Positions 432-53,250 of a stretch of DNA of 64,000 bases are shown piece by piece. Made by a program: the position numbers and the translations under genes. Every line of letters starts with the position of its first letter. Position 1 is the first letter of the stretch. The stretch covers positions 364,020 to 428,019 of the forward strand of contig JALRHH010000001.1 of the NCBI GenBank assembly GCA_023253175.1. The letters are read 5' to 3'. The notes beneath the pieces were generated by a model. The model made no database searches and was not told the origin of the DNA. It saw only the letters and a program-made list of their open reading frames with translations. This DNA comes from Candidatus Saccharimonadia bacterium (GTDB lineage Bacteria; Patescibacteriota; Saccharimonadia; Saccharimonadales; JALRHH01).

Positions 432-953
432 ATGAAAAAACAACTTTTAGCGGCCGGCGTTGCGACCGTAATTGGTGTGACTGGACTCGGTGCTGGAGTC
501 GCTCATGCAGCGACCTCATCAGAAGAAAATGACGGGCCGATGTCGAGCCTCGTGAGCGCAATTGCGACCAAATTTAACCTCGACAAGACACAGGTTCAGG
601 AGGTATTTGATGCACAGCGCGAAGCAATGGAAAAGGAACGCGAAGAGAAGGTACAAACCGAACTAAAGCAGCTCGTAACTGATGGTAAGCTAACCCAAGC
701 GCAAGCAGATGCGATAACTGCCAAGCGCACTGAACTCGAGACGCAGCGCGAAGCAAACAAGGATTCCATGAAAGACCTAAGTAGTGATGAGCGAAAGGCT
801 AAAATGGACGAACAGAAAACCGCACTTGAAGCATGGGCCAAGGAACAAGGTATTAGCACCGAATATCTTCGCTATGTCATGGGTCATGGACCTGGAGGTC
901 ACGGAGGACCGGGAAGAGGACGAGATCAAGCTACCTCAGATACTAATTCCTAA
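432..953 (+). CDS. Secreted coiled-coil protein of unknown function
   Basis: Signal peptide MKKQLLAAGVATVIGVTGLGAGVAHA, a Glu/Lys/Gln-rich middle and a GHGPGGHGGPGRGR tail. AAGGAG lies upstream of the ATG and a terminator follows. Confidence 0.7.
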   Translation: MKKQLLAAGVATVIGVTGLGAGVAHAATSSEENDGPMSSLVSAIATKFNLDKTQVQEVFDAQREAMEKEREEKVQTELKQLVTDGKLTQAQADAITAKRTELETQREANKDSMKDLSSDERKAKMDEQKTALEAWAKEQGISTEYLRYVMGHGPGGHGGPGRGRDQATSDTNS

Positions 954-1054: not shown

Positions 1055-1735
1055 ATGAGAATATTGATTGTAGAAGACGAACATAAAATTGCCAGCGCCA
1101 TCAAGCGTGGCCTTGAACAACAGTCATATGCAGTTGACGTATCATATGACGCTGATGATGGGCTCGCTATGGCGACGACAGAACCGTATGATCTCATTAT
1201 TCTGGATCGGATGTTGCCTGGAAGCCTCGACGGCATTGGTATCCTCCGTACGCTGCGAGACCAGAATAACCATACGCCTGTTTTGCTATTGACCGCTAAA
1301 GATCGGGTACTGGACAGGGCAGAAGGCCTTAATGCCGGCGCCGACGATTATCTCGTGAAGCCTTTTGCCTTTGTAGAACTCATTGCACGAGTTCGCGCTT
1401 TACTGCGGCGTTCACCTCAGGCTACAAATAGCGTCATAGAGTATGACGATCTTAGCCTTAACACGTTGACTAAAACCGTCGAAAGATCAGGCAACAATAT
1501 TCAACTTACATCTAAGGAATTCGCACTACTTGAATACTTTATGCGTAATCCAGAACGCATTGTGAGTAAAGATGCATTGATTCAGCACGTCTGGAATTAT
1601 GACGCCGACATCCTTCCAAATACTGTCGAAGTATACATGGGCTATCTCAGGGGCAAGATCGACAAACCGTTCAAGCAAAGTAAACCACTACTACACACTC
1701 GGCGCGGATTCGGCTATTATTTTGGTACCGTATGA
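1055..1735 (+). CDS. OmpR-family response regulator (REC plus winged-helix)
   Basis: MRILIVEDE...DLIILDRMLPG...LLLTAKD...GADDYLVKPF, with a C-terminal trans_reg_C-like part (LTSKEFALLEYFMRNP...RRGFGY). Confidence 0.95.
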   Translation: MRILIVEDEHKIASAIKRGLEQQSYAVDVSYDADDGLAMATTEPYDLIILDRMLPGSLDGIGILRTLRDQNNHTPVLLLTAKDRVLDRAEGLNAGADDYLVKPFAFVELIARVRALLRRSPQATNSVIEYDDLSLNTLTKTVERSGNNIQLTSKEFALLEYFMRNPERIVSKDALIQHVWNYDADILPNTVEVYMGYLRGKIDKPFKQSKPLLHTRRGFGYYFGTV

Positions 1736-23733: not shown

Positions 23734-23754
23734 ATCTCTTAGTAAAGATATGTA

Positions 23755-23782
23755 AAAGACCTCCGTATCCGGAGGTCTTTTG
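23755..23782 (+). terminator. Rho-independent terminator (A-run upstream, so potentially bidirectional)
   Basis: AAAA-GACCTCCG-TATC-CGGAGGTC-TTTT. Confidence 0.8.
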
Positions 23783-23993
23783 TAATCTTTCATCCTTTTG
23801 GATCATACCCCATTGAGGTATGAGGTCCTTCATTCGGAACATAATTTTGAGCAAGTTCAAAATATACGCTACCTCATTCGAGACCCTCATCAGTACAAAC
23901 ACGCATTTGTATAGATTACGTGAGGTGGGTGGGTCCGGCGACAGGGCATTATAGCCATATATGTCGCCGGACCACACCGCACCTCTTCAGGAG

Positions 23994-46962: not shown

Positions 46963-47910
46963 ATGAATATTCATCTGTTAATATTTATGGTTATTGCACT
47001 TTTGCCAGGGGTCTATACAATGAGATTACATACGAAGAGCAAAGCCCCTCAAATGAAAATTTCACGTATTTCAGCAGATCACACCCTATACCCCAAGCGG
47101 CTGCATACCATTACAGACTACCCAAAACAGCTCTATATAGCGGGCGAATTAGATATAGAGAGCCGTCTAACACTTGCGGTAGTAGGCAGCCGCAAAGTAA
47201 CACCCTACGGAAGGCATGTCACTGAACTTCTGGTCCGTGAGGCTGCCAAGCAGGGCATTGTCATTGTCAGCGGCCTTGCACTCGGTGTAGATGCCATCGC
47301 CCACCAAGCAGCACTGGCAGAGCGGGGCACGACCATAGCGGTGCTTCCGTGTGGCCTTGATACCATGTACCCAACAAGTCACCACCACCTGGCAAAGCAA
47401 ATCCTAGACCAAGGTGGGGCACTCGTCAGTGAGTACTCAGAAGGCACCAAACCTTTTAAACTAAATTTCATCGCGCGTAACCGCATTGTTGCTGGATTAG
47501 CCGATGCCGTGCTTATAACAGAGGCGGCGGGCAAAAGTGGCACACTCCATACCGCAAACTTTGCCCTAGAGCAGGGCAGGACGGTCATGGCCGTGCCAGG
47601 AAACATCACAAGTGAGCAGTCGCGGGGCACAAATAACCTTATTAAAATGGGAGCCGTGCCTGTTACTGATATTACAGATATACTGGCCGCCATGGGCCTT
47701 GAAAACCGTGGGGCAATAGAGCGACTCTTGCTTGGTGATACAGAAGAGGAGACCCGCATACTAAAACTCCTGAGTAGCGGCATATCTGACGCAAGTGAAT
47801 TGCTTCATAAAAGCGAGCTTGATCCTTCACTATTCAATCAGTCGCTAACCATGCTTGAAATTAATGGCAAGGTTCGTCCTTTGGGCGCGGGGCATTGGGG
47901 CATCGCATGA
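46963..47910 (+). CDS. dprA: DNA-processing protein DprA (Smf)
   Basis: LAVVGSRKVTPYGRHVT...IVSGLALGVDAIAHQAAL...GTTIAVLPCGLD. The true start may be an internal ATG (47020 or 47053). Confidence 0.9.
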   Translation: MNIHLLIFMVIALLPGVYTMRLHTKSKAPQMKISRISADHTLYPKRLHTITDYPKQLYIAGELDIESRLTLAVVGSRKVTPYGRHVTELLVREAAKQGIVIVSGLALGVDAIAHQAALAERGTTIAVLPCGLDTMYPTSHHHLAKQILDQGGALVSEYSEGTKPFKLNFIARNRIVAGLADAVLITEAAGKSGTLHTANFALEQGRTVMAVPGNITSEQSRGTNNLIKMGAVPVTDITDILAAMGLENRGAIERLLLGDTEEETRILKLLSSGISDASELLHKSELDPSLFNQSLTMLEINGKVRPLGAGHWGIA

Positions 47911-48113
47911 AATGGCTCTTTAACCTATTATTCCCGACCAGCGCCCGTGACCGCAAGATGTGTAAGGATAAGGTTCGTTTCGCTAATGAACCGGCCGCCA
48001 ACGAGGCAATTAGACGTATCAACCCCACTCGGCGTAAAGACAAGCCGAATAGGGCATACAAATGTCCCAAATGCCGCGGCTATCATCTGACGCGCAGCCC
48101 AAAGCAGCAATAA
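47907..48113 (+). CDS. Small basic protein with a C-terminal CPKCxGxH zinc-ribbon-like motif
   Basis: ATGA overlap with the dprA stop. The motif is ...AYKCPKCRGYHLT. Confidence 0.5.
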   Translation: MKWLFNLLFPTSARDRKMCKDKVRFANEPAANEAIRRINPTRRKDKPNRAYKCPKCRGYHLTRSPKQQ

Positions 48114-48255
48114 TCATACATAATAGTATGTGAACATTTTCATTGCTTATTTTTGCATTTTACAATATAATATTATGGTTTTGTCGAGTTTTGAGAGTTC
48201 TAAATTCTCCTCAACATTACGATCATTGACAAGCAGATACAGGAAGAGGTGATTG

Positions 48256-48528
48256 ATGTCTCCAGCACGTGCTAGACTGTCCGTCGAAAACTGCCACGTG
48301 ACTCCGCTCAAAGCAGCAGAGCTCGGCCAGTATCTCGGCGCACGATTGTCGTGGCACATCGAAGTGGTGATCCATTTCCACTCGAACGAGAGCCTAACGC
48401 TCACGTTTGTTCCACCATGGGAGTACTGGCAGCGACCGGCAATGTTCAAAGAACTTGTCGCGAGAGTCAGTGGCTTCACTACCGGCACCGTAATCGAACA
48501 AGGTACCGAAGACACCGTTCTCCGGTAA
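48256..48528 (+). CDS. Hypothetical protein (high-GC islet)
   Basis: AGGAAGAGG RBS 7 nt upstream of the ATG. 90 aa. The antisense ORFs here are compositional artefacts. Confidence 0.45.
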   Translation: MSPARARLSVENCHVTPLKAAELGQYLGARLSWHIEVVIHFHSNESLTLTFVPPWEYWQRPAMFKELVARVSGFTTGTVIEQGTEDTVLR

Positions 48529-48540
48529 TGAAAGGAAACA

Positions 48541-48702
48541 ATGTCTGTCCAGCAAGGTCGGGGATACGGATACACGTCAGATGAGATGCTGAGCTGCATG
48601 CGAAGCGCGAGAGGCCTCGGCGTCCCGTTCGCACCCCGACGACTCGGCCCCATCGGCATCGTCCTCCAGGGCAGCAAGAAGCTCCTGGGAGTTCTCTTCT
48701 GA
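48541..48702 (+). CDS. Hypothetical small protein (53 aa), second gene of the islet
   Basis: My own translation gives MSVQQGRGYGYTSDEMLSCMRSARGLGVPFAPRRLGPIGIVLQGSKKLLGVLF. AAAGGAAA lies upstream. A 12-bp hairpin follows at 48720-48765. The ORF is below the track size cut-off. Confidence 0.3.
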   Translation: MSVQQGRGYGYTSDEMLSCMRSARGLGVPFAPRRLGPIGIVLQGSKKLLGVLF

Positions 48703-48872
48703 GGGGTGCACTCGGAACTCGCTGTGGGCGATCAAGGCATACGCTGCTCTTGGTCGCCCACAGCGCCCGCCCCCTACGCCCAAAAACCCGTATCTGCTTG
48801 TCATCAACCCAATGAATTACCTTTAAAGTAGTCCTACAATATGTAGGGCTTTTTATATGCCATACTATGTAT

Positions 48873-49046
48873 ATGAGCCAAAAAACAATTATCTACATAT
48901 TTATCGCTATCTTTGGTACGGCAGGCAGCTGGCTCGGCAGTCTCCTCGACAAAGGCAATATGTTTGGTGTCTGGGGCATTATTGGCGGCACCATTGGCGG
49001 ACTGTTCGGCATCTGGGCGGCCGTAAAGGCCACCAGCGGCGAGTAA
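48873..49046 (+). CDS. Small two-helix membrane protein (57 aa)
   Basis: My own translation gives MSQKTIIYIFIAIFGTAGSWLGSLLDKGNMFGVWGIIGGTIGGLFGIWAAVKATSGE. The overlapping track ORF 48857..49123 is in another frame and looks non-protein-like. Confidence 0.5.
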   Translation: MSQKTIIYIFIAIFGTAGSWLGSLLDKGNMFGVWGIIGGTIGGLFGIWAAVKATSGE

Positions 49047-49128
49047 GCGACTTATTTGCATTCGCCATCCATGTGCGTTACGCTAGAGCGGTTTTGATCA
49101 AACAATACATGAGGTATACTTAAGCGTA

Positions 49129-51423
49129 ATGACAAAAAATTTGGTTATCGTAGAGTCTCCGGCAAAGGCCAAGACAATTGAGAAATTCCTCGGCAAGGAC
49201 TTCACCGTCAAGAGTAGCTTCGGCCACATCCGTGATCTTCCCAAGAAAGGGCTCAACATTGATATCCAAAACGATTTTGCTCCAACCTATGATATTAGCC
49301 TTGATAAGAAGAAGGTTGTTTCAGAATTAAAATCAGCTGCCAAGGGCGCCGAAGTCTGGCTCGCATCCGATGAAGACCGCGAAGGAGAGGCGATCGCATG
49401 GCACCTCAGCGAAGCACTTGGGCTCGATGCATCTAAAACAAAGCGTATCGTATTCCACGAAATCACCAAGACTGCGATCGAAAATGCCGTTAAGAACCCC
49501 CGCACAATCGACAAGAACCTTGTTGACGCGCAGCAGGCACGCCGCATCCTGGACCGCCTTGTGGGGTACGAACTCAGTCCAGTACTCTGGAAGAAAGTCC
49601 GTCCAGGCCTCAGTGCTGGACGCGTGCAGTCTGTTGCTGTTCGCCTGATCGTTGAACGCGAACGTGAAATCCGTGAGTACACCGCAGAAACCAAATACAA
49701 AGTATCGGCTGTATTTAATGTAGAATCCGCTGATCTACCGGCAGAACTCAGTACAAGATTCGAAAGCAAGGACGACACTAAACAGTTCCTTGAAGCAAAC
49801 ATTGGCGCAAGCTACAGCGTCCAATCAGTCGAAACCAGCCCAGGAACCCGCAATCCGAGCGCACCGTTTACGACCAGTACACTCCAGCAAGAAGCATCTC
49901 GTCGCCTCGGCTACGGCGTAAAGCAAACCATGACCTTGGCACAGCGCCTCTACGAAGCAGGACATATTACCTACATGCGTACCGACAGTACGACGCTGTC
50001 TGGCTTCGCGATCAAGGCCGCTGAAGATCACATTACCCGTGAATACGGTAAGGAATACCACAAGCTCCGCCAATTCAAGACCAAGAATGAATCCGCCCAG
50101 GAAGCCCACGAGGCCATCAGGCCAACTGATTTTGGCAAACTGTCAGCAGGAGCAGATGCCCAGCAAAAGAAGCTCTATGAGCTCATCTGGCGCCGCAGCA
50201 TCGCCAGCCAGATGGCACCTGCATCAATTGACAAGACCGAGATCAAGATAGCTATCAGCAGCCGCAAGGAATACTTCAGCGCCAAAGGTGAAGTCCTTAA
50301 GTTTGATGGCTTCCTAAAGGTATACGGTGGTGGCAAGGACGATGTTATCTTGCCAGCATTATCAGAAGGACAGAACCTTGAGCGCAGCAGCCTGAGCGCC
50401 ACACAGGTCTTTAGCCGTGCGCCAGCCCGTTATTCAGAGGCGAGCCTCGTTAAGGCACTCGAAGAAAACGGCATTGGCCGTCCAAGTACTTATGCACCTA
50501 CAATTAGTACTATCCAAGCCCGCGAATACGTTATTAAGGCAGACGTAGAGGGCAGGGAGCGCCAGGTAGAAACACTTACACTTGAAAATGATACCGTTAG
50601 CGAAGAAACCAAGACGGAAATTACCGGTGCTGACCGCAATAAACTTTTGCCAACGGCCCTGGCAGATGTCACGACCGACTTCCTCGTAAAGCACTTCCCG
50701 TCAGTCGTTGACTACGACTTTACCGCTCGCGTTGAAGGCAACTTTGACCATGTCGCCGAAGGCAAGGAGACATGGGTCCAGATGATCAAGGACTTCTACA
50801 AGGATTTCCACCCACTAGTCGAAAGCTCGGCAGATATCAGTAGAGAAGAGAGCACTCAGACTCGTGTGCTCGGCAGCGATCCAAAGAGCGGCAAGCCCAT
50901 CATGGCCCGCTACGGCCGTTATGGCCCAATGCTGCAGCGCGGGGAAACAGAAAGTGAAGAAAAGCCAGACTTTGCACCTATGCCAGAGGGCGTACTTCTC
51001 GAGGAAGTCACTCTGGAGCAGGCACTTGAAATGTTCAAGCTACCACGCCTTGTCGGTGTCACCGAGGACGGCAAGGACATCAAGGCCAACATCGGCCGCT
51101 TTGGTCCATATATTCAGGTAGAGAAGCTGTATGTATCCATTAAGCCGCATGATCCAATGAAGATCACCGAGGAAGAGGCACGTGAGCTCTACGCCAAGAA
51201 ACTCGAAGCAGAGGCCAACAAGTACATTCAAATCTTTGAAAAGAGCGGTATTAAGGTCGTAAATGGTCCGTACGGTCCATATATTACCGATGGCAAGAAG
51301 AACGCCCGCATTCCAAAATCAGTTGACCCAGCCAAGATTACAGAAGCAGAAGCTAAAGAGTTAGTAGACAAAGCCCCAGCCAAGAAAAAGCGCGTCATCC
51401 GCCGCACCAAAAAAGCTTCATAG
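49129..51423 (+). CDS. topA: DNA topoisomerase I
   Basis: TOPRIM LVIVESPAKAKTIEKFLG, DEDREGEAIAWH, and the active-site region YITYMRTDS. Lys-rich C-terminal end. Confidence 0.97.
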   Translation: MTKNLVIVESPAKAKTIEKFLGKDFTVKSSFGHIRDLPKKGLNIDIQNDFAPTYDISLDKKKVVSELKSAAKGAEVWLASDEDREGEAIAWHLSEALGLDASKTKRIVFHEITKTAIENAVKNPRTIDKNLVDAQQARRILDRLVGYELSPVLWKKVRPGLSAGRVQSVAVRLIVEREREIREYTAETKYKVSAVFNVESADLPAELSTRFESKDDTKQFLEANIGASYSVQSVETSPGTRNPSAPFTTSTLQQEASRRLGYGVKQTMTLAQRLYEAGHITYMRTDSTTLSGFAIKAAEDHITREYGKEYHKLRQFKTKNESAQEAHEAIRPTDFGKLSAGADAQQKKLYELIWRRSIASQMAPASIDKTEIKIAISSRKEYFSAKGEVLKFDGFLKVYGGGKDDVILPALSEGQNLERSSLSATQVFSRAPARYSEASLVKALEENGIGRPSTYAPTISTIQAREYVIKADVEGRERQVETLTLENDTVSEETKTEITGADRNKLLPTALADVTTDFLVKHFPSVVDYDFTARVEGNFDHVAEGKETWVQMIKDFYKDFHPLVESSADISREESTQTRVLGSDPKSGKPIMARYGRYGPMLQRGETESEEKPDFAPMPEGVLLEEVTLEQALEMFKLPRLVGVTEDGKDIKANIGRFGPYIQVEKLYVSIKPHDPMKITEEEARELYAKKLEAEANKYIQIFEKSGIKVVNGPYGPYITDGKKNARIPKSVDPAKITEAEAKELVDKAPAKKKRVIRRTKKAS

Positions 51424-51536
51424 CTCTATTACCAAGCATCTTGGCACTCCTATACATCGTTAGCACTTATTTTATTTTTCCATAATTATGTTATAATATA
51501 GATATTCACCACCCAAGTGAAGATCCTTCTACCGGA

Positions 51537-51830
51537 TTGGAGAGCACTATGCTCATCAACAACCCCATCATGTTCACCATGTTCATTCTTGCGCTGGTAA
51601 TTTTGTCAAGTGCTTGGCTCAACCTAGCGTACAACACCCTCAAAAGTCCAGACAAAGTCAGTGCACGTTGCACCCTGGCCATAGGGGCATCTTGCTTCAT
51701 TCTGGCTGGTGTCTGGCCGTCGGGAGACTCCGGGCAGAACCCGTGGATCATCAGCCTGTTCTTGGCAGCGGGGGTGATGCACACTTACATCGGCCTGGCT
51801 CACTACCAGAGGTTGAGGGAAACGCCGTAG
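51537..51830 (+). CDS. Small membrane protein (3 helices), GC-rich 3' half
   Basis: 97-aa ORF with hydrophobic helices. The overlapping alternative-frame ORFs were rejected. Confidence 0.5.
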   Translation: MESTMLINNPIMFTMFILALVILSSAWLNLAYNTLKSPDKVSARCTLAIGASCFILAGVWPSGDSGQNPWIISLFLAAGVMHTYIGLAHYQRLRETP

Positions 51831-51964
51831 AAGCATCAAGCCCTTGGAGATTGATTCCGAGGCAGCCAACAAAAACGGGGAAGGTTGGCTCTAGTATCAC
51901 TTGTTGATACAGCCCCGAAGAGGAGATTTGAAGGTTTACCATTTTGGTAAAACTCATCTTTCTC

Positions 51965-52022
51965 TTGTCGCTATACGAATATGATAGTCGTACTGATGAG
52001 CCGTGAACGGCGAAAGCGATAA
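51965..52022 (+). ncRNA. Hammerhead self-cleaving ribozyme, type III topology
   Basis: TTGTCGCTA|TACGA-ATATGATAG-TCGTA-CTGATGA-GCCG-TGAA-CGGC-GAAA-GCGATAA. All invariant core positions and all three stems are present. Predicted cleavage is after A51973. Confidence 0.85.
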
Positions 52023-52209
52023 AACAGGGGTGTTTTTCCACAATTTTGACAGATTACAAACTCGTTTTGTTGTAATATTTCTATAGAATTATCAAGCAGG
52101 GAAGTCTATTTAGTGATACAATAGGCTTATATACATAAATTATTGACTTTAGAGATAGTTTGTTATAGAATAATACTAAATCTCTTGCATTAACAGATAA
52201 GGATAACTG

Positions 52210-53250
52210 ATGACCGACACGGCTACGAAACTGCCTGTAGAGCAAATTGTGAATGACATCTTGGGCACCATTGATCGCGAACGAGAACGCGAGATTGTTT
52301 CACGTCGCTATGGTTTGTTTGACCGCAAGGAAACTCTGGAGCAGATTGGTGAGCTCCTTGGGATTACCCGTGAGCGTGTTCGTCAGCTCGAAAAAGCAGT
52401 TGTCCAAAAGCTGAAGGCACAAGGGGAGAGCGGTGAGCTTCCTCATATTGCCGAAGTCCAGACTGCGCTCGTTGCCGCCATCAACGACATGGGCAAGGTA
52501 GTTCGTGTCAAGAACCTCTCAGAAGTCTTTACAGAAGAAAACAGCAAGCTCGACCAAGCACGCATTGCATTCCTTGCACAGCTTTGCCCAGAGCTAACTG
52601 TTATTGACGACAATGACCACTTTCACAACGCAGTTGCCGTAACTGTTCACCATGATGAAAAGAAGGTGAAAGACCTCGTAACGGGTCTTATTGATACCAT
52701 CAAAGAGCACGGTGAACCAGCTGAAATCAGCACATTTGCCAAGAAGGCAGGACACGACGACCACAAGCACACCGAATCACTTGCATCTGTCAGTAAACAT
52801 CTTGCAACACTGAACGACCGCTGGGGTCTTATCAAGTGGCCTATGGTCAATCCAAAGAACATCCGTGACAAGATCTACGTTATCTTAAAAGAACACGGCA
52901 AGCACATGCACTTCAACGAAATCGCGGAAGCCATCAAGGGCAGTGACTTCAAGCGCAAAGACGTAACCACACAGGCAATTCACAACGAACTTATCAAGGA
53001 CAAGCGCTTCGTGCTCATCGGCCGTGGTATTTACGCGCTCAAGGAATGGGGTTACAGCAAGGGAACCGTTGCTGATATCATCGCTGATGTCCTTAAGGAC
53101 GCAGGCGAACCCCTACACCGCGATGAAATCGTTAAGCGCGTGCTAGAGAGCCGCTACGTCAAGGAAACAACCATTCTTCTGAATCTCCAGGGCAAGCCAC
53201 AGTTTAAGCGCGTTGCCAAAGCTACCTACACCCTCGCTGACGCGGAGTAG
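52210..53250 (+). CDS. Sigma-70 region-4-like HTH protein with a C-terminal HARE-HTH-like domain
   Basis: The N-terminal part RRYGL...TLEQIGELLGITRERVRQLEKAVVQKLK is a region 4.2-type HTH. The C-terminal part MHFNEIAEAI...IHNELIKDKRFVLIGRGIYALKEWGY is HARE-HTH-like. Confidence 0.7.
   Translation: MTDTATKLPVEQIVNDILGTIDREREREIVSRRYGLFDRKETLEQIGELLGITRERVRQLEKAVVQKLKAQGESGELPHIAEVQTALVAAINDMGKVVRVKNLSEVFTEENSKLDQARIAFLAQLCPELTVIDDNDHFHNAVAVTVHHDEKKVKDLVTGLIDTIKEHGEPAEISTFAKKAGHDDHKHTESLASVSKHLATLNDRWGLIKWPMVNPKNIRDKIYVILKEHGKHMHFNEIAEAIKGSDFKRKDVTTQAIHNELIKDKRFVLIGRGIYALKEWGYSKGTVADIIADVLKDAGEPLHRDEIVKRVLESRYVKETTILLNLQGKPQFKRVAKATYTLADAE

Follow-up and report, generated by a model that had tools for sequence, protein, structure and literature searches.

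A type III hammerhead ribozyme closing an inserted single-gene block beside topA in Saccharibacteria, and its proposed role in setting transcript 3' ends

We analysed a 64,000-nucleotide (nt) stretch of a Candidatus Saccharimonadia bacterium genome (contig JALRHH010000001.1; hereafter the window), in which the plus strand at 51965-52022, between topA and a gene with Sigma70_r4 and HARE-HTH domains, carries a complete type III hammerhead ribozyme. The motif had been proposed from the letters of the window alone (the original prediction). It lies at the end of a block of about 560 nt that is missing from most relatives and holds a single small gene. With moderate confidence, we read the element as a bona fide type III hammerhead that forms the 3' part of a horizontally acquired single-gene block and defines the 3' end of a transcript. 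The mechanism we prefer is that co-transcriptional self-cleavage sets the 3' ends of accessory-gene transcripts and thereby uncouples the next gene.

Read directly, the plus strand gives UUGUCGCUA/UACGA-AUAUGAUAG-UCGUA-CUGAUGA-GCCG-UGAA-CGGC-GAAA-GCGAUAA, the slash marking the predicted cleavage site. Stem III joins TTGTCGCT (51965-51972) to AGCGATAA (52015-52022) through 8 bp, one G-U among them; its 5' strand, UUGUCGCU, ends in U51972, which is U16.1. Stem I is a hairpin at 51974-51992, in which UACGA (51974-51978) pairs with UCGUA (51988-51992) over 5 bp below a 9-nt loop (51979-51987), and both the reading and the fold contain it. The catalytic core residues C3 to A9, CUGAUGA, occupy 51993-51999 and lead into the stem II hairpin (52000-52011), GCCG-UGAA-CGGC, which has 4 bp, a G10.1-C11.1 closing pair and the loop UGAA at 52004-52007. 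The core residues G12 A13 A14 (GAA, 52012-52014) and the stem III 3' strand from A15.1 (AGCGAUAA) complete the element at 52012-52022. A15.1 is A52015, which pairs with U16.1, and H17 is A51973, that is, not G; from this core geometry the scissile bond is predicted between A51973 and U51974. Stems I and II are capped by loops and stem III is open, with its strands at the two ends of the element, which is the type III topology. When 51960-52030 (71 nt) were folded with RNAfold, the minimum free energy (MFE) structure and the centroid were both the three-way junction as read. Core nucleotides, stems, topology and coordinates are thus exactly as the original prediction placed them, and its cleavage site after A51973 agrees with our reading of the core.

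We searched with a type III descriptor that was kept loose (CUGANGA, GAAA, minimum stems of 4, 3 and 4 bp, H17 not G, generous loops); it matched once in 128 kb, both strands of the window, at 51965-52022. It did not match at all in 40 Mb of first-order Markov sequence with the dinucleotide make-up of the window, which bears out the earlier view that the motif is unlikely to arise by chance. By an analytic estimate, the loose form should occur by chance ~4e-8 times per base, and a motif with helices of 5, 4 and 8 bp about a thousandfold less often (roughly 1e-10). A sequencing correction that breaks the core had been named as a possible undoing of the motif and was not seen: the ribozyme is base-for-base the same in three further independent assemblies of the same strain, and the core is therefore not a sequencing artefact.

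Rfam, searched at gathering level over the whole window, returned three tRNAs only and no ribozyme. A permissive Rfam scan of 51830-52210 gave RF00008 (Hammerhead_3) at 22.4 bits (E = 0.019), a local match to model positions 9-47 that mis-registers stem I. A score under the gathering threshold of this model had been put forward as counting against the ribozyme, and on a formal view 22.4 against 48.5 bits does so. The threshold is an operational cut-off tied to a single seed alignment rather than a definition of the ribozyme class, and we judge the low score to be a limitation of the RF00008 seed, which is insensitive to the present family. The window copy shares with RF00008 the invariant core, the A15.1-U16.1 pair, H17, the cleavage rule and the capped stems I and II with an open stem III; it differs in its 8-bp stem III, its unusual 9-nt loop I and its location on a bacterial chromosome rather than in a circular RNA replicon.

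With TopA as anchor, we collected 80 loci from species-representative genomes, ~57 of them from Saccharibacteria (TM7, Saccharimonadales); the closest has 84% TopA identity to the window. The descriptor and then a covariance model revealed hammerheads in four genomes, corresponding to 4 of the ~57 Saccharibacteria topA loci. The search of related genomes suggested with the original prediction was productive through gene synteny. In one relative (L001), the gene strand carries three copies, of which one, ~620 nt downstream of topA, has the same position as the window copy; two other relatives (L032 and L015) each have a single copy on the upstream side of topA. Five clean copies (alignment A1) align in register with an invariant core. 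In this alignment 94% of cells are paired and 12 of 17 pairs are compensatory, and sliding the pairing partners by 1-3 columns lowers the paired fraction to 26-47%. A covariance model built from the five copies (R1) scores the window copy at 77.8 bits (E ~1e-15) over its full length and recovers the L015 copy, which has a long branched stem I and lay outside the training set, at 45.2 bits.

The family extends well beyond these loci. A scan of metagenome and viral contigs with the pattern GTACTGATGAG-N5-AA-N3-CGAAA gave at least 120 stretches in metagenome contigs and 17 in IMG/VR viral contigs. Nearly all of the listed matches were full-length R1 matches, many contigs holding 2-4 copies on one strand. 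With R1, over 100 distinct relatives come to light in metagenomes and in some viral contigs. In an alignment of 104 distinct sequences (A4), whose fitting to the model and pre-selection of metagenome members by core pattern leave stem covariation informative and core conservation not, pairing holds in 90.9% of cells (slid controls, 28-48%), compensatory changes occur in 15 of 17 pairs and 489 cells are doubly changed, against 159 +/- 14.5 in shuffles. The columns of stem III covary family-wide, as do the inner pairs of stem II; the G10.1-C11.1 pair is essentially invariant, and in every one of the 101 scored members the A15.1-U16.1 pair is U-A. Typically, stem I has 7 bp and a GUGU cap, stem II has 4 bp and a loop of AAAA, GAAA or UAAA, and stem III has 4-6 bp. 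Of 99 members, 47 have GUGU as loop I, 55 have AAAA as loop II and 7 have CUA, the cleavage triplet of the window copy. All of the ~30 members found in 20 test loci match the family-specific model end to end, and two reach the RF00008 gathering score (L104 1174-1228, 51.8 bits, and 812-866, 49.1 bits). The family is thus continuous with the Rfam type III hammerhead but lies mostly below its threshold. Since RF00008 misses most of it, annotation pipelines under-report bacterial hammerheads. The family is large, its members being spread over the chromosomes of Saccharibacteria, further uncultured bacteria and some phages, and eight metagenome loci are demonstrably Saccharibacteria relatives of the window.

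These comparisons bear directly on whether the motif is a chance match unrelated to hammerhead ribozymes. Such a match would explain the Rfam score below the gathering threshold and a fold shuffle z of merely -1.28, and it is contradicted by the empty 40 Mb of random sequence, by the 77.8 bits of the family-specific model and by homologues in relatives that occupy the same locus and carry compensatory changes. Because of the covariation and the synteny, we regard a chance match as effectively refuted and give it next to no credence.

Two further observations concern the Saccharibacteria copies. In about seven of them a CTTGTC(A) motif recurs that directly precedes the 5' strand of stem III or overlaps it, with sites in the window (51963-51969), in L001 (4449-4458 and 8913-8921) and in L141, L169 and L023; neither a pairing partner nor a promoter geometry was found that would explain the recurrence. 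The L023 copy (647-709, plus strand) is decayed: stem I and CUGAUGA are intact, GAA has become GAG, stem II is weakened and the R1 score is 19.4 bits. This copy shows that members of the hammerhead family do decay.

The gene order dprA, topA, Sigma70_r4/HARE-HTH is kept in ~50 Saccharimonadales loci. In the window, topA (DNA topoisomerase I; Pfam Toprim, Topoisom_bac and Toprim_C_rpt) lies at 49129-51423 and the conserved downstream gene at 52210-53250. The genes downstream had been described as unknown, and the first of them carries Sigma70_r4 and HARE-HTH domains by Pfam and is syntenic in ~50 loci. The claim that the ribozyme shares a strand with its flanking genes holds, as topA, the small upstream open reading frame (ORF) and the ORF from 52210 are all on the plus strand. 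A non-coding region at 52033-52200, in front of the Sigma70_r4/HARE-HTH gene, is conserved in all Saccharimonadales relatives (alignment A2), and the promoter scan and the alignment identify within it an invariant promoter-like box, TTGACT-17-TAGAAT, at 52143-52171, downstream of the hammerhead. The spacer between topA and the Sigma70_r4/HARE gene usually measures 190-300 nt; the window (787 nt) and L001 (862 nt) exceed this, and elsewhere it extends to as much as 3.6 kb. In the window and in L001 the hammerhead ends ~10 nt before the conserved non-coding region, and the sequence from topA to that point is lineage-specific (A2). Alignment A2 and the spacer lengths in ~50 genomes delimit the inserted block at 51475-52032; it comprises a promoter-like box, an orphan gene, hairpins and the hammerhead, all on the plus strand.

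The putative extended -10-like box of the block, TGTTATAAT (51489-51497), lies upstream of the small gene and was read directly as a candidate promoter; a consensus promoter scan did not report it and found no -35 box there. The cargo is an orphan gene for a 93-amino-acid (aa) hydrophobic protein at 51549-51830. A plus-strand ORF had been given there as 51537..51830; the ORF is present and is better read from the ATG at 51549. Four public assemblies of the same strain annotate it as a gene, and three of them extend to the ribozyme. The 93-aa protein had no Pfam or PHROG match and, among 5.8 billion proteins, matched itself only; the cargo ORFs of L001, L032 and L015 drew nothing from Pfam and PHROGs either. 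The hammerhead starts 134 nt past the stop codon of the 93-aa gene. Three hairpins (51864-51890, 51894-51910 and 51932-51954) lie in between, none of them followed by a U-tract, and a terminator scan of the plus strand from the small-gene stop codon to the downstream start found no terminator-like site. A Pfam scan of the window neighbours found no phage or integrase domains, no search having been aimed at integrases.

What differs between relatives at this point is the insert. L001 has a different, 111-aa orphan gene, and stems II and III of its hammerhead are entirely different from those of the window. A metagenome contig whose TopA is 71% identical (L177) holds two tandem cassettes in the same spacer and then the same conserved region; each cassette consists of a promoter-like box, a gene for a small protein with four transmembrane segments, a long conserved hairpin and a hammerhead. 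On that contig (4700-4790 and 5480-5560, minus strand), a hairpin segment of ~75 nt (GAAGTGGTAGAGGTGATGGATCATCCATCGACAACCCCTCATACCTCCCACTTCA) is near-identical 5' of both hammerheads and the cargo genes have diverged, so that the segment looks like a conserved part of the cassette 3' end. An imperfect direct repeat, 14 of 16 positions, brackets the inserted block of the window at 51475-51490 and 52033-52048. We rejected it as a target-site duplication and take it as a weak hint only: the L001 block has no comparable direct repeat, and the repeat motif is not otherwise over-represented.

Both spacers that flank topA are insertion hotspots across loci L001-L057. The dprA-to-topA spacer (window 47910-49129) and the topA-to-Sigma70_r4/HARE spacer (51423-52210) are usually ~90-300 nt long and reach 2.6-3.6 kb, with lineage-specific small genes, in some genomes; the L026 spacer also holds two tRNA genes. 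The conserved region of ~170 nt (window 52033-52200; L001-L011) starts with TT[T/A]TCCACAATTT and contains several promoter-like boxes. These multiple conserved boxes suggest complex control of the Sigma70_r4/HARE-HTH gene, or a small RNA.

A hairpin directly upstream is a regular companion of the ribozyme throughout the family. The 70 nt directly 5' of the ribozyme have a mean MFE of -20.5 kcal/mol and a shuffle z of -2.7, with z < -2 in 59% of cases. The 70 nt on the 3' side reach -11.5 kcal/mol (z -1.2) and the coding sequence at -200 to -130 reaches -16.1 kcal/mol (z -0.8), and the upstream-structure comparisons gave paired Wilcoxon p values of 3e-10 and 7e-6. As in the window, no U-tract follows the upstream hairpins. 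Of the distinct copies, 66 have a confident ORF on either side: 38 of these sit between co-directional genes, 12 close a unit and face a convergent gene, 6 open a unit and 10 are antisense to both neighbours; the last group probably stems from missed small genes. In 74% of the co-directional cases the distance from the ribozyme to the preceding stop (median 62 nt) is shorter than that to the following start (178 nt), and tandem copies usually bracket exactly one gene.

The 113 upstream ORFs fell into 78 clusters, none dominant, so that a common upstream gene family was rejected, and an enrichment of membrane proteins upstream (29% against a 19% background) was not compelling. A phage origin of the family was not borne out either: when 100 large genes next to metagenome copies were scanned with Pfam and PHROGs, most were housekeeping genes (RpoB, TopA, DNA polymerase III alpha, CTP synthase, GroEL, elongation factors and sugar-nucleotide enzymes) and a few were terminase or portal genes. 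Finally, a promoter directly after the ribozyme is too weakly enriched to be a family rule (promoter-like boxes 3' of 18 of 90 ribozymes, against 12.7 +/- 3.0).

How might such an element act? Hammerheads cleave 3' of H17, which leaves a 2',3'-cyclic phosphate on the upstream product and a 5'-OH on the downstream product. In the type III form, almost the entire ribozyme remains on the downstream fragment, and the upstream RNA retains only the 5' strand of stem III. We propose that the block (promoter-like box, 93-aa membrane-protein gene, hairpins and ribozyme) was acquired horizontally and inserted into the hotspot between topA and the Sigma70_r4/HARE-HTH gene. Transcription would start from a promoter within the block or arrive by read-through from topA. 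As a transcript crossed the ribozyme, stems I, II and then III would form co-transcriptionally, and the RNA would cleave itself between A51973 and U51974. The upstream mRNA would then end in a 2',3'-cyclic phosphate shortly past the stable hairpins, giving it a defined and probably protected 3' end that presumably could not be tailed until the phosphate was removed. The ribozyme body would stay on the 5'-OH downstream fragment, and read-through RNA would be severed from the conserved gene, which has its own promoter. Catalytic activity of the window copy, promoter use and the consequences for RNA stability are all suppositions of this scheme. That a type III hammerhead here would cut a read-through transcript, as originally predicted, is supported at the level of sequence by independent copies, an invariant core and three covarying helices. 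Since the product geometry of the type III form and the conserved upstream hairpin point the same way, a defined 3' end is the best supported reading. The placement of the conserved promoter of the downstream gene 3' of the ribozyme also supports it.

The same geometry could serve the downstream gene instead. The ribozyme would then process or regulate the 5' leader of the Sigma70_r4/HARE-HTH gene, trimming read-through RNA to a defined, structured 5'-OH end, possibly under regulation. The element lies on the same strand, 188 nt before the start codon; it abuts the conserved upstream region in the window and in L001; the type III topology keeps the ribozyme body on the downstream fragment; and there is a precedent in haloviruses HF1/HF2, where a hammerhead lies 13 nt upstream of a helicase gene (PMC3088659). 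Yet ~45 of ~50 relatives have the gene and its conserved upstream region without a hammerhead, and family-wide the ribozyme sits nearer to upstream stops than to downstream starts. Moreover, the invariant promoter-like box is downstream of the ribozyme, so primary transcripts would exclude it. We therefore consider a role in the 5' leader improbable.

A second, variant hammerhead occurs in the window on the minus strand (23782-23919), where it was recognised from R1 (28.7 bits), sequence and fold. Its stem III (GUAAUCU/AGAUUAC), H17 (A23912), 7-bp stem I and CUGAUGA/GAAA core are all canonical. Its stem II is split by an insertion of 81 nt (23805-23885) that forms extra hairpins, and the whole element has a z of -3.5. 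The insertion is unique in all sequence examined and thus was not found as a repeated mobile element. An intact orthologue without the insertion is present in L193 (2325-2375). The second copy is probably inactivated; alternatively, it may be an unusual multi-branched variant. A 12-bp hairpin precedes it and a textbook intrinsic terminator (~23754-23781) follows it.

Several observations weigh against a ribozyme-defined 3' end at the locus beside topA. (i) The RF00008 gathering score is not reached by the window copy, and its fold is not discriminating on thermodynamic grounds, the shuffle z being unremarkable at -1.28 for 71 nt and -1.42 for 270 nt. (ii) In the 270-nt context the optimum fold swaps stem III for a pairing of its 3' strand with downstream sequence, and cleavage must therefore be co-transcriptional. 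(iii) Loops I and II of the window copy depart from the GUGU and AAAA of the family norm, which leaves tertiary contacts between its loops, and with them its speed at physiological Mg2+, uncertain; we saw no obvious Watson-Crick complementarity between the two loops. (iv) The excess of copies at unit ends over unit starts is not significant (12 versus 6, p = 0.24), and the enrichment of promoter-like boxes 3' of the ribozyme is weak. (v) In the second copy and in its L193 orthologue the ribozyme precedes an intrinsic terminator, and the module is therefore not a simple terminator replacement. (vi) Relatives with other insertions at the hotspot have no detectable hammerhead and no Rfam ribozyme at gathering level; the ribozyme is dispensable there in most relatives, and is therefore not needed for insertion or for expression of the neighbours.

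The last point would also suit a passenger, that is, a genuine hammerhead that arrived with transferred, possibly phage-derived DNA, that may still cleave, and that persists without a selected role until it decays. Its distribution is sporadic, the four topA loci among ~57 being a small minority; decayed or disrupted copies exist (the second copy with its 81-nt insertion, and L023 with its damaged core); the cargo genes are orphans; and some members lie on viral contigs or beside terminase or portal genes. Against a passenger, the helices covary around an intact core across more than 100 distinct copies, which indicates strong purifying selection on structure, and an intact orthologous copy was kept between the window lineage and L193. 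The consistent placement relative to genes and the upstream hairpin also argue for a function, at least for the element or for the gene it travelled with. We thus regard a passenger as possible and, on this evidence, rather unlikely.

Tandem copies raise another possibility, namely that pairs of hammerheads excise a defined RNA, which is then circularised by ligation or mobilised by way of RNA in the manner of a retrozyme. Same-strand tandem copies bracket units of 250-2000 nt in L001, L177, L191, L104, L119 and others, some of the bracketed units are ORF-less and highly structured (z -4 to -9), and type III hammerheads serve eukaryotic retrozymes in the same manner (PMC4918200). At the window locus itself, an exhaustive filter-free scan finds one intact copy and no partner in the block, a Pfam scan of the window showed neither a reverse transcriptase nor a ligase gene nearby, and the flanking direct repeat is weak and not reproduced in L001. 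In addition, Perreault et al. sought spliced or circular products of bacterial clusters and found none (PMC3088659). Excision and circularisation are possible for the tandem arrays elsewhere and are not supported at the window locus, where we hold them to be highly improbable.

The ORF-less units are of interest in their own right. Delimited by two same-strand type III hammerheads, they measure 249-432 nt from cleavage site to cleavage site and occur in L104 (hammerheads at 807-871 and 1169-1233, minus strand), L108 (2608-2866), L183 (417-674), L119, L196 and L191 (2219-2603). They are strongly structured, with long perfect hairpins and shuffle z values of -4 to -9. The L108 and L183 units are 78% identical, and the L104 unit includes a further hammerhead-like core. 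Rfam at gathering level matched no family on L104, L108, L119 and L183. The units could be discrete non-coding RNAs released by double cleavage. They resemble retrozymes, in which direct repeats of type III or type I hammerheads bracket short, often non-coding units, the resemblance being to the units of 250-360 nt; retrozymes are eukaryotic retroelements that spread via circular RNA, and the window locus is single-copy (PMC4918200, PMC7229834).

Natural and engineered precedents help to place the module. The RiboJ insulator combines the type III hammerhead of sTRSV with a hairpin; it cuts off the upstream transcript context and so uncouples expression units. It is engineered and placed in a 5' untranslated region (UTR), with the hairpin downstream, whereas the present module is natural and lies at the 3' end of a gene, with the hairpin upstream. 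Among natural elements, the glmS ribozyme is the only bacterial self-cleaver with an established function (PMC6765202). Like the hammerhead described here, it is a cis-cleaving mRNA element, and its 5'-OH product alters the fate of the downstream RNA, a precedent for effects on stability. It differs in having another fold, in depending on a metabolite and in lying always in the 5' UTR of one specific gene; the window hammerhead has no ligand pocket and no fixed gene partner and is placed after a gene.

Close parallels are the bacterial hammerhead clusters of Perreault et al. (2011; PMC3088659). Clustered gene-flanking hammerheads occur in Clostridium scindens, Azorhizobium caulinodans and the Agrobacterium tumefaciens ardA locus; those of prophages flank variable single genes and cleave in vitro and in E. 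coli, and a role in the processing of long transcripts was proposed. The clusters resemble the present copies in being intergenic, on the gene strand, with variable gene partners and often tandem (here in L001, L177, L191 and L147). They differ in that the present family occupies Saccharibacteria, of the candidate phyla radiation (CPR), in mostly chromosomal housekeeping surroundings rather than recognisable prophages, and a consistent upstream hairpin is not described in the parts of that paper drawn on here. Gene-flanking hammerheads in bacteria and prophages are thus already on record, and the arrangement in the window matches them. The 3'-end mechanism that we prefer makes the transcript-processing proposal of Perreault et al. 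more specific and is unproven. Our literature search found no paper linking hammerheads or self-cleaving ribozymes to Saccharibacteria, CPR or Patescibacteria. New here are the lineage, a natural comparison at a conserved insertion hotspot and the regular pairing of hairpin and ribozyme.

Hammerheads are chemically the best-understood ribozymes, yet their role in bacteria and phages is unsettled; they number hundreds to thousands there, and a review finds their roles largely elusive (PMC6765202). The topA hotspot provides a natural comparison, in which the same two conserved genes are found without an insert, with an insert that lacks a ribozyme, or with different orphan genes that each end in a different hammerhead. 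The regularity of the upstream hairpin suggests a ribozyme-made 3' end, capped by a cyclic phosphate, that insulates accessory genes from their neighbours. More speculatively, and we think it a long shot, the hairpin and hammerhead together may mark the 3' boundary of mobile single-gene cassettes that re-insert at the same hotspots in Saccharibacteria and perhaps in other streamlined uncultured bacteria. This idea draws on three genomes with different cargo at the same point before the Sigma70_r4/HARE promoter region. If it is true, the ribozyme would be either integral to transfer, through an RNA or circular intermediate, or an insulator that makes insertion beside essential genes tolerable, and the ORF-less two-hammerhead units of 250-360 nt would be non-coding cargo freed as discrete, possibly circular, RNAs.

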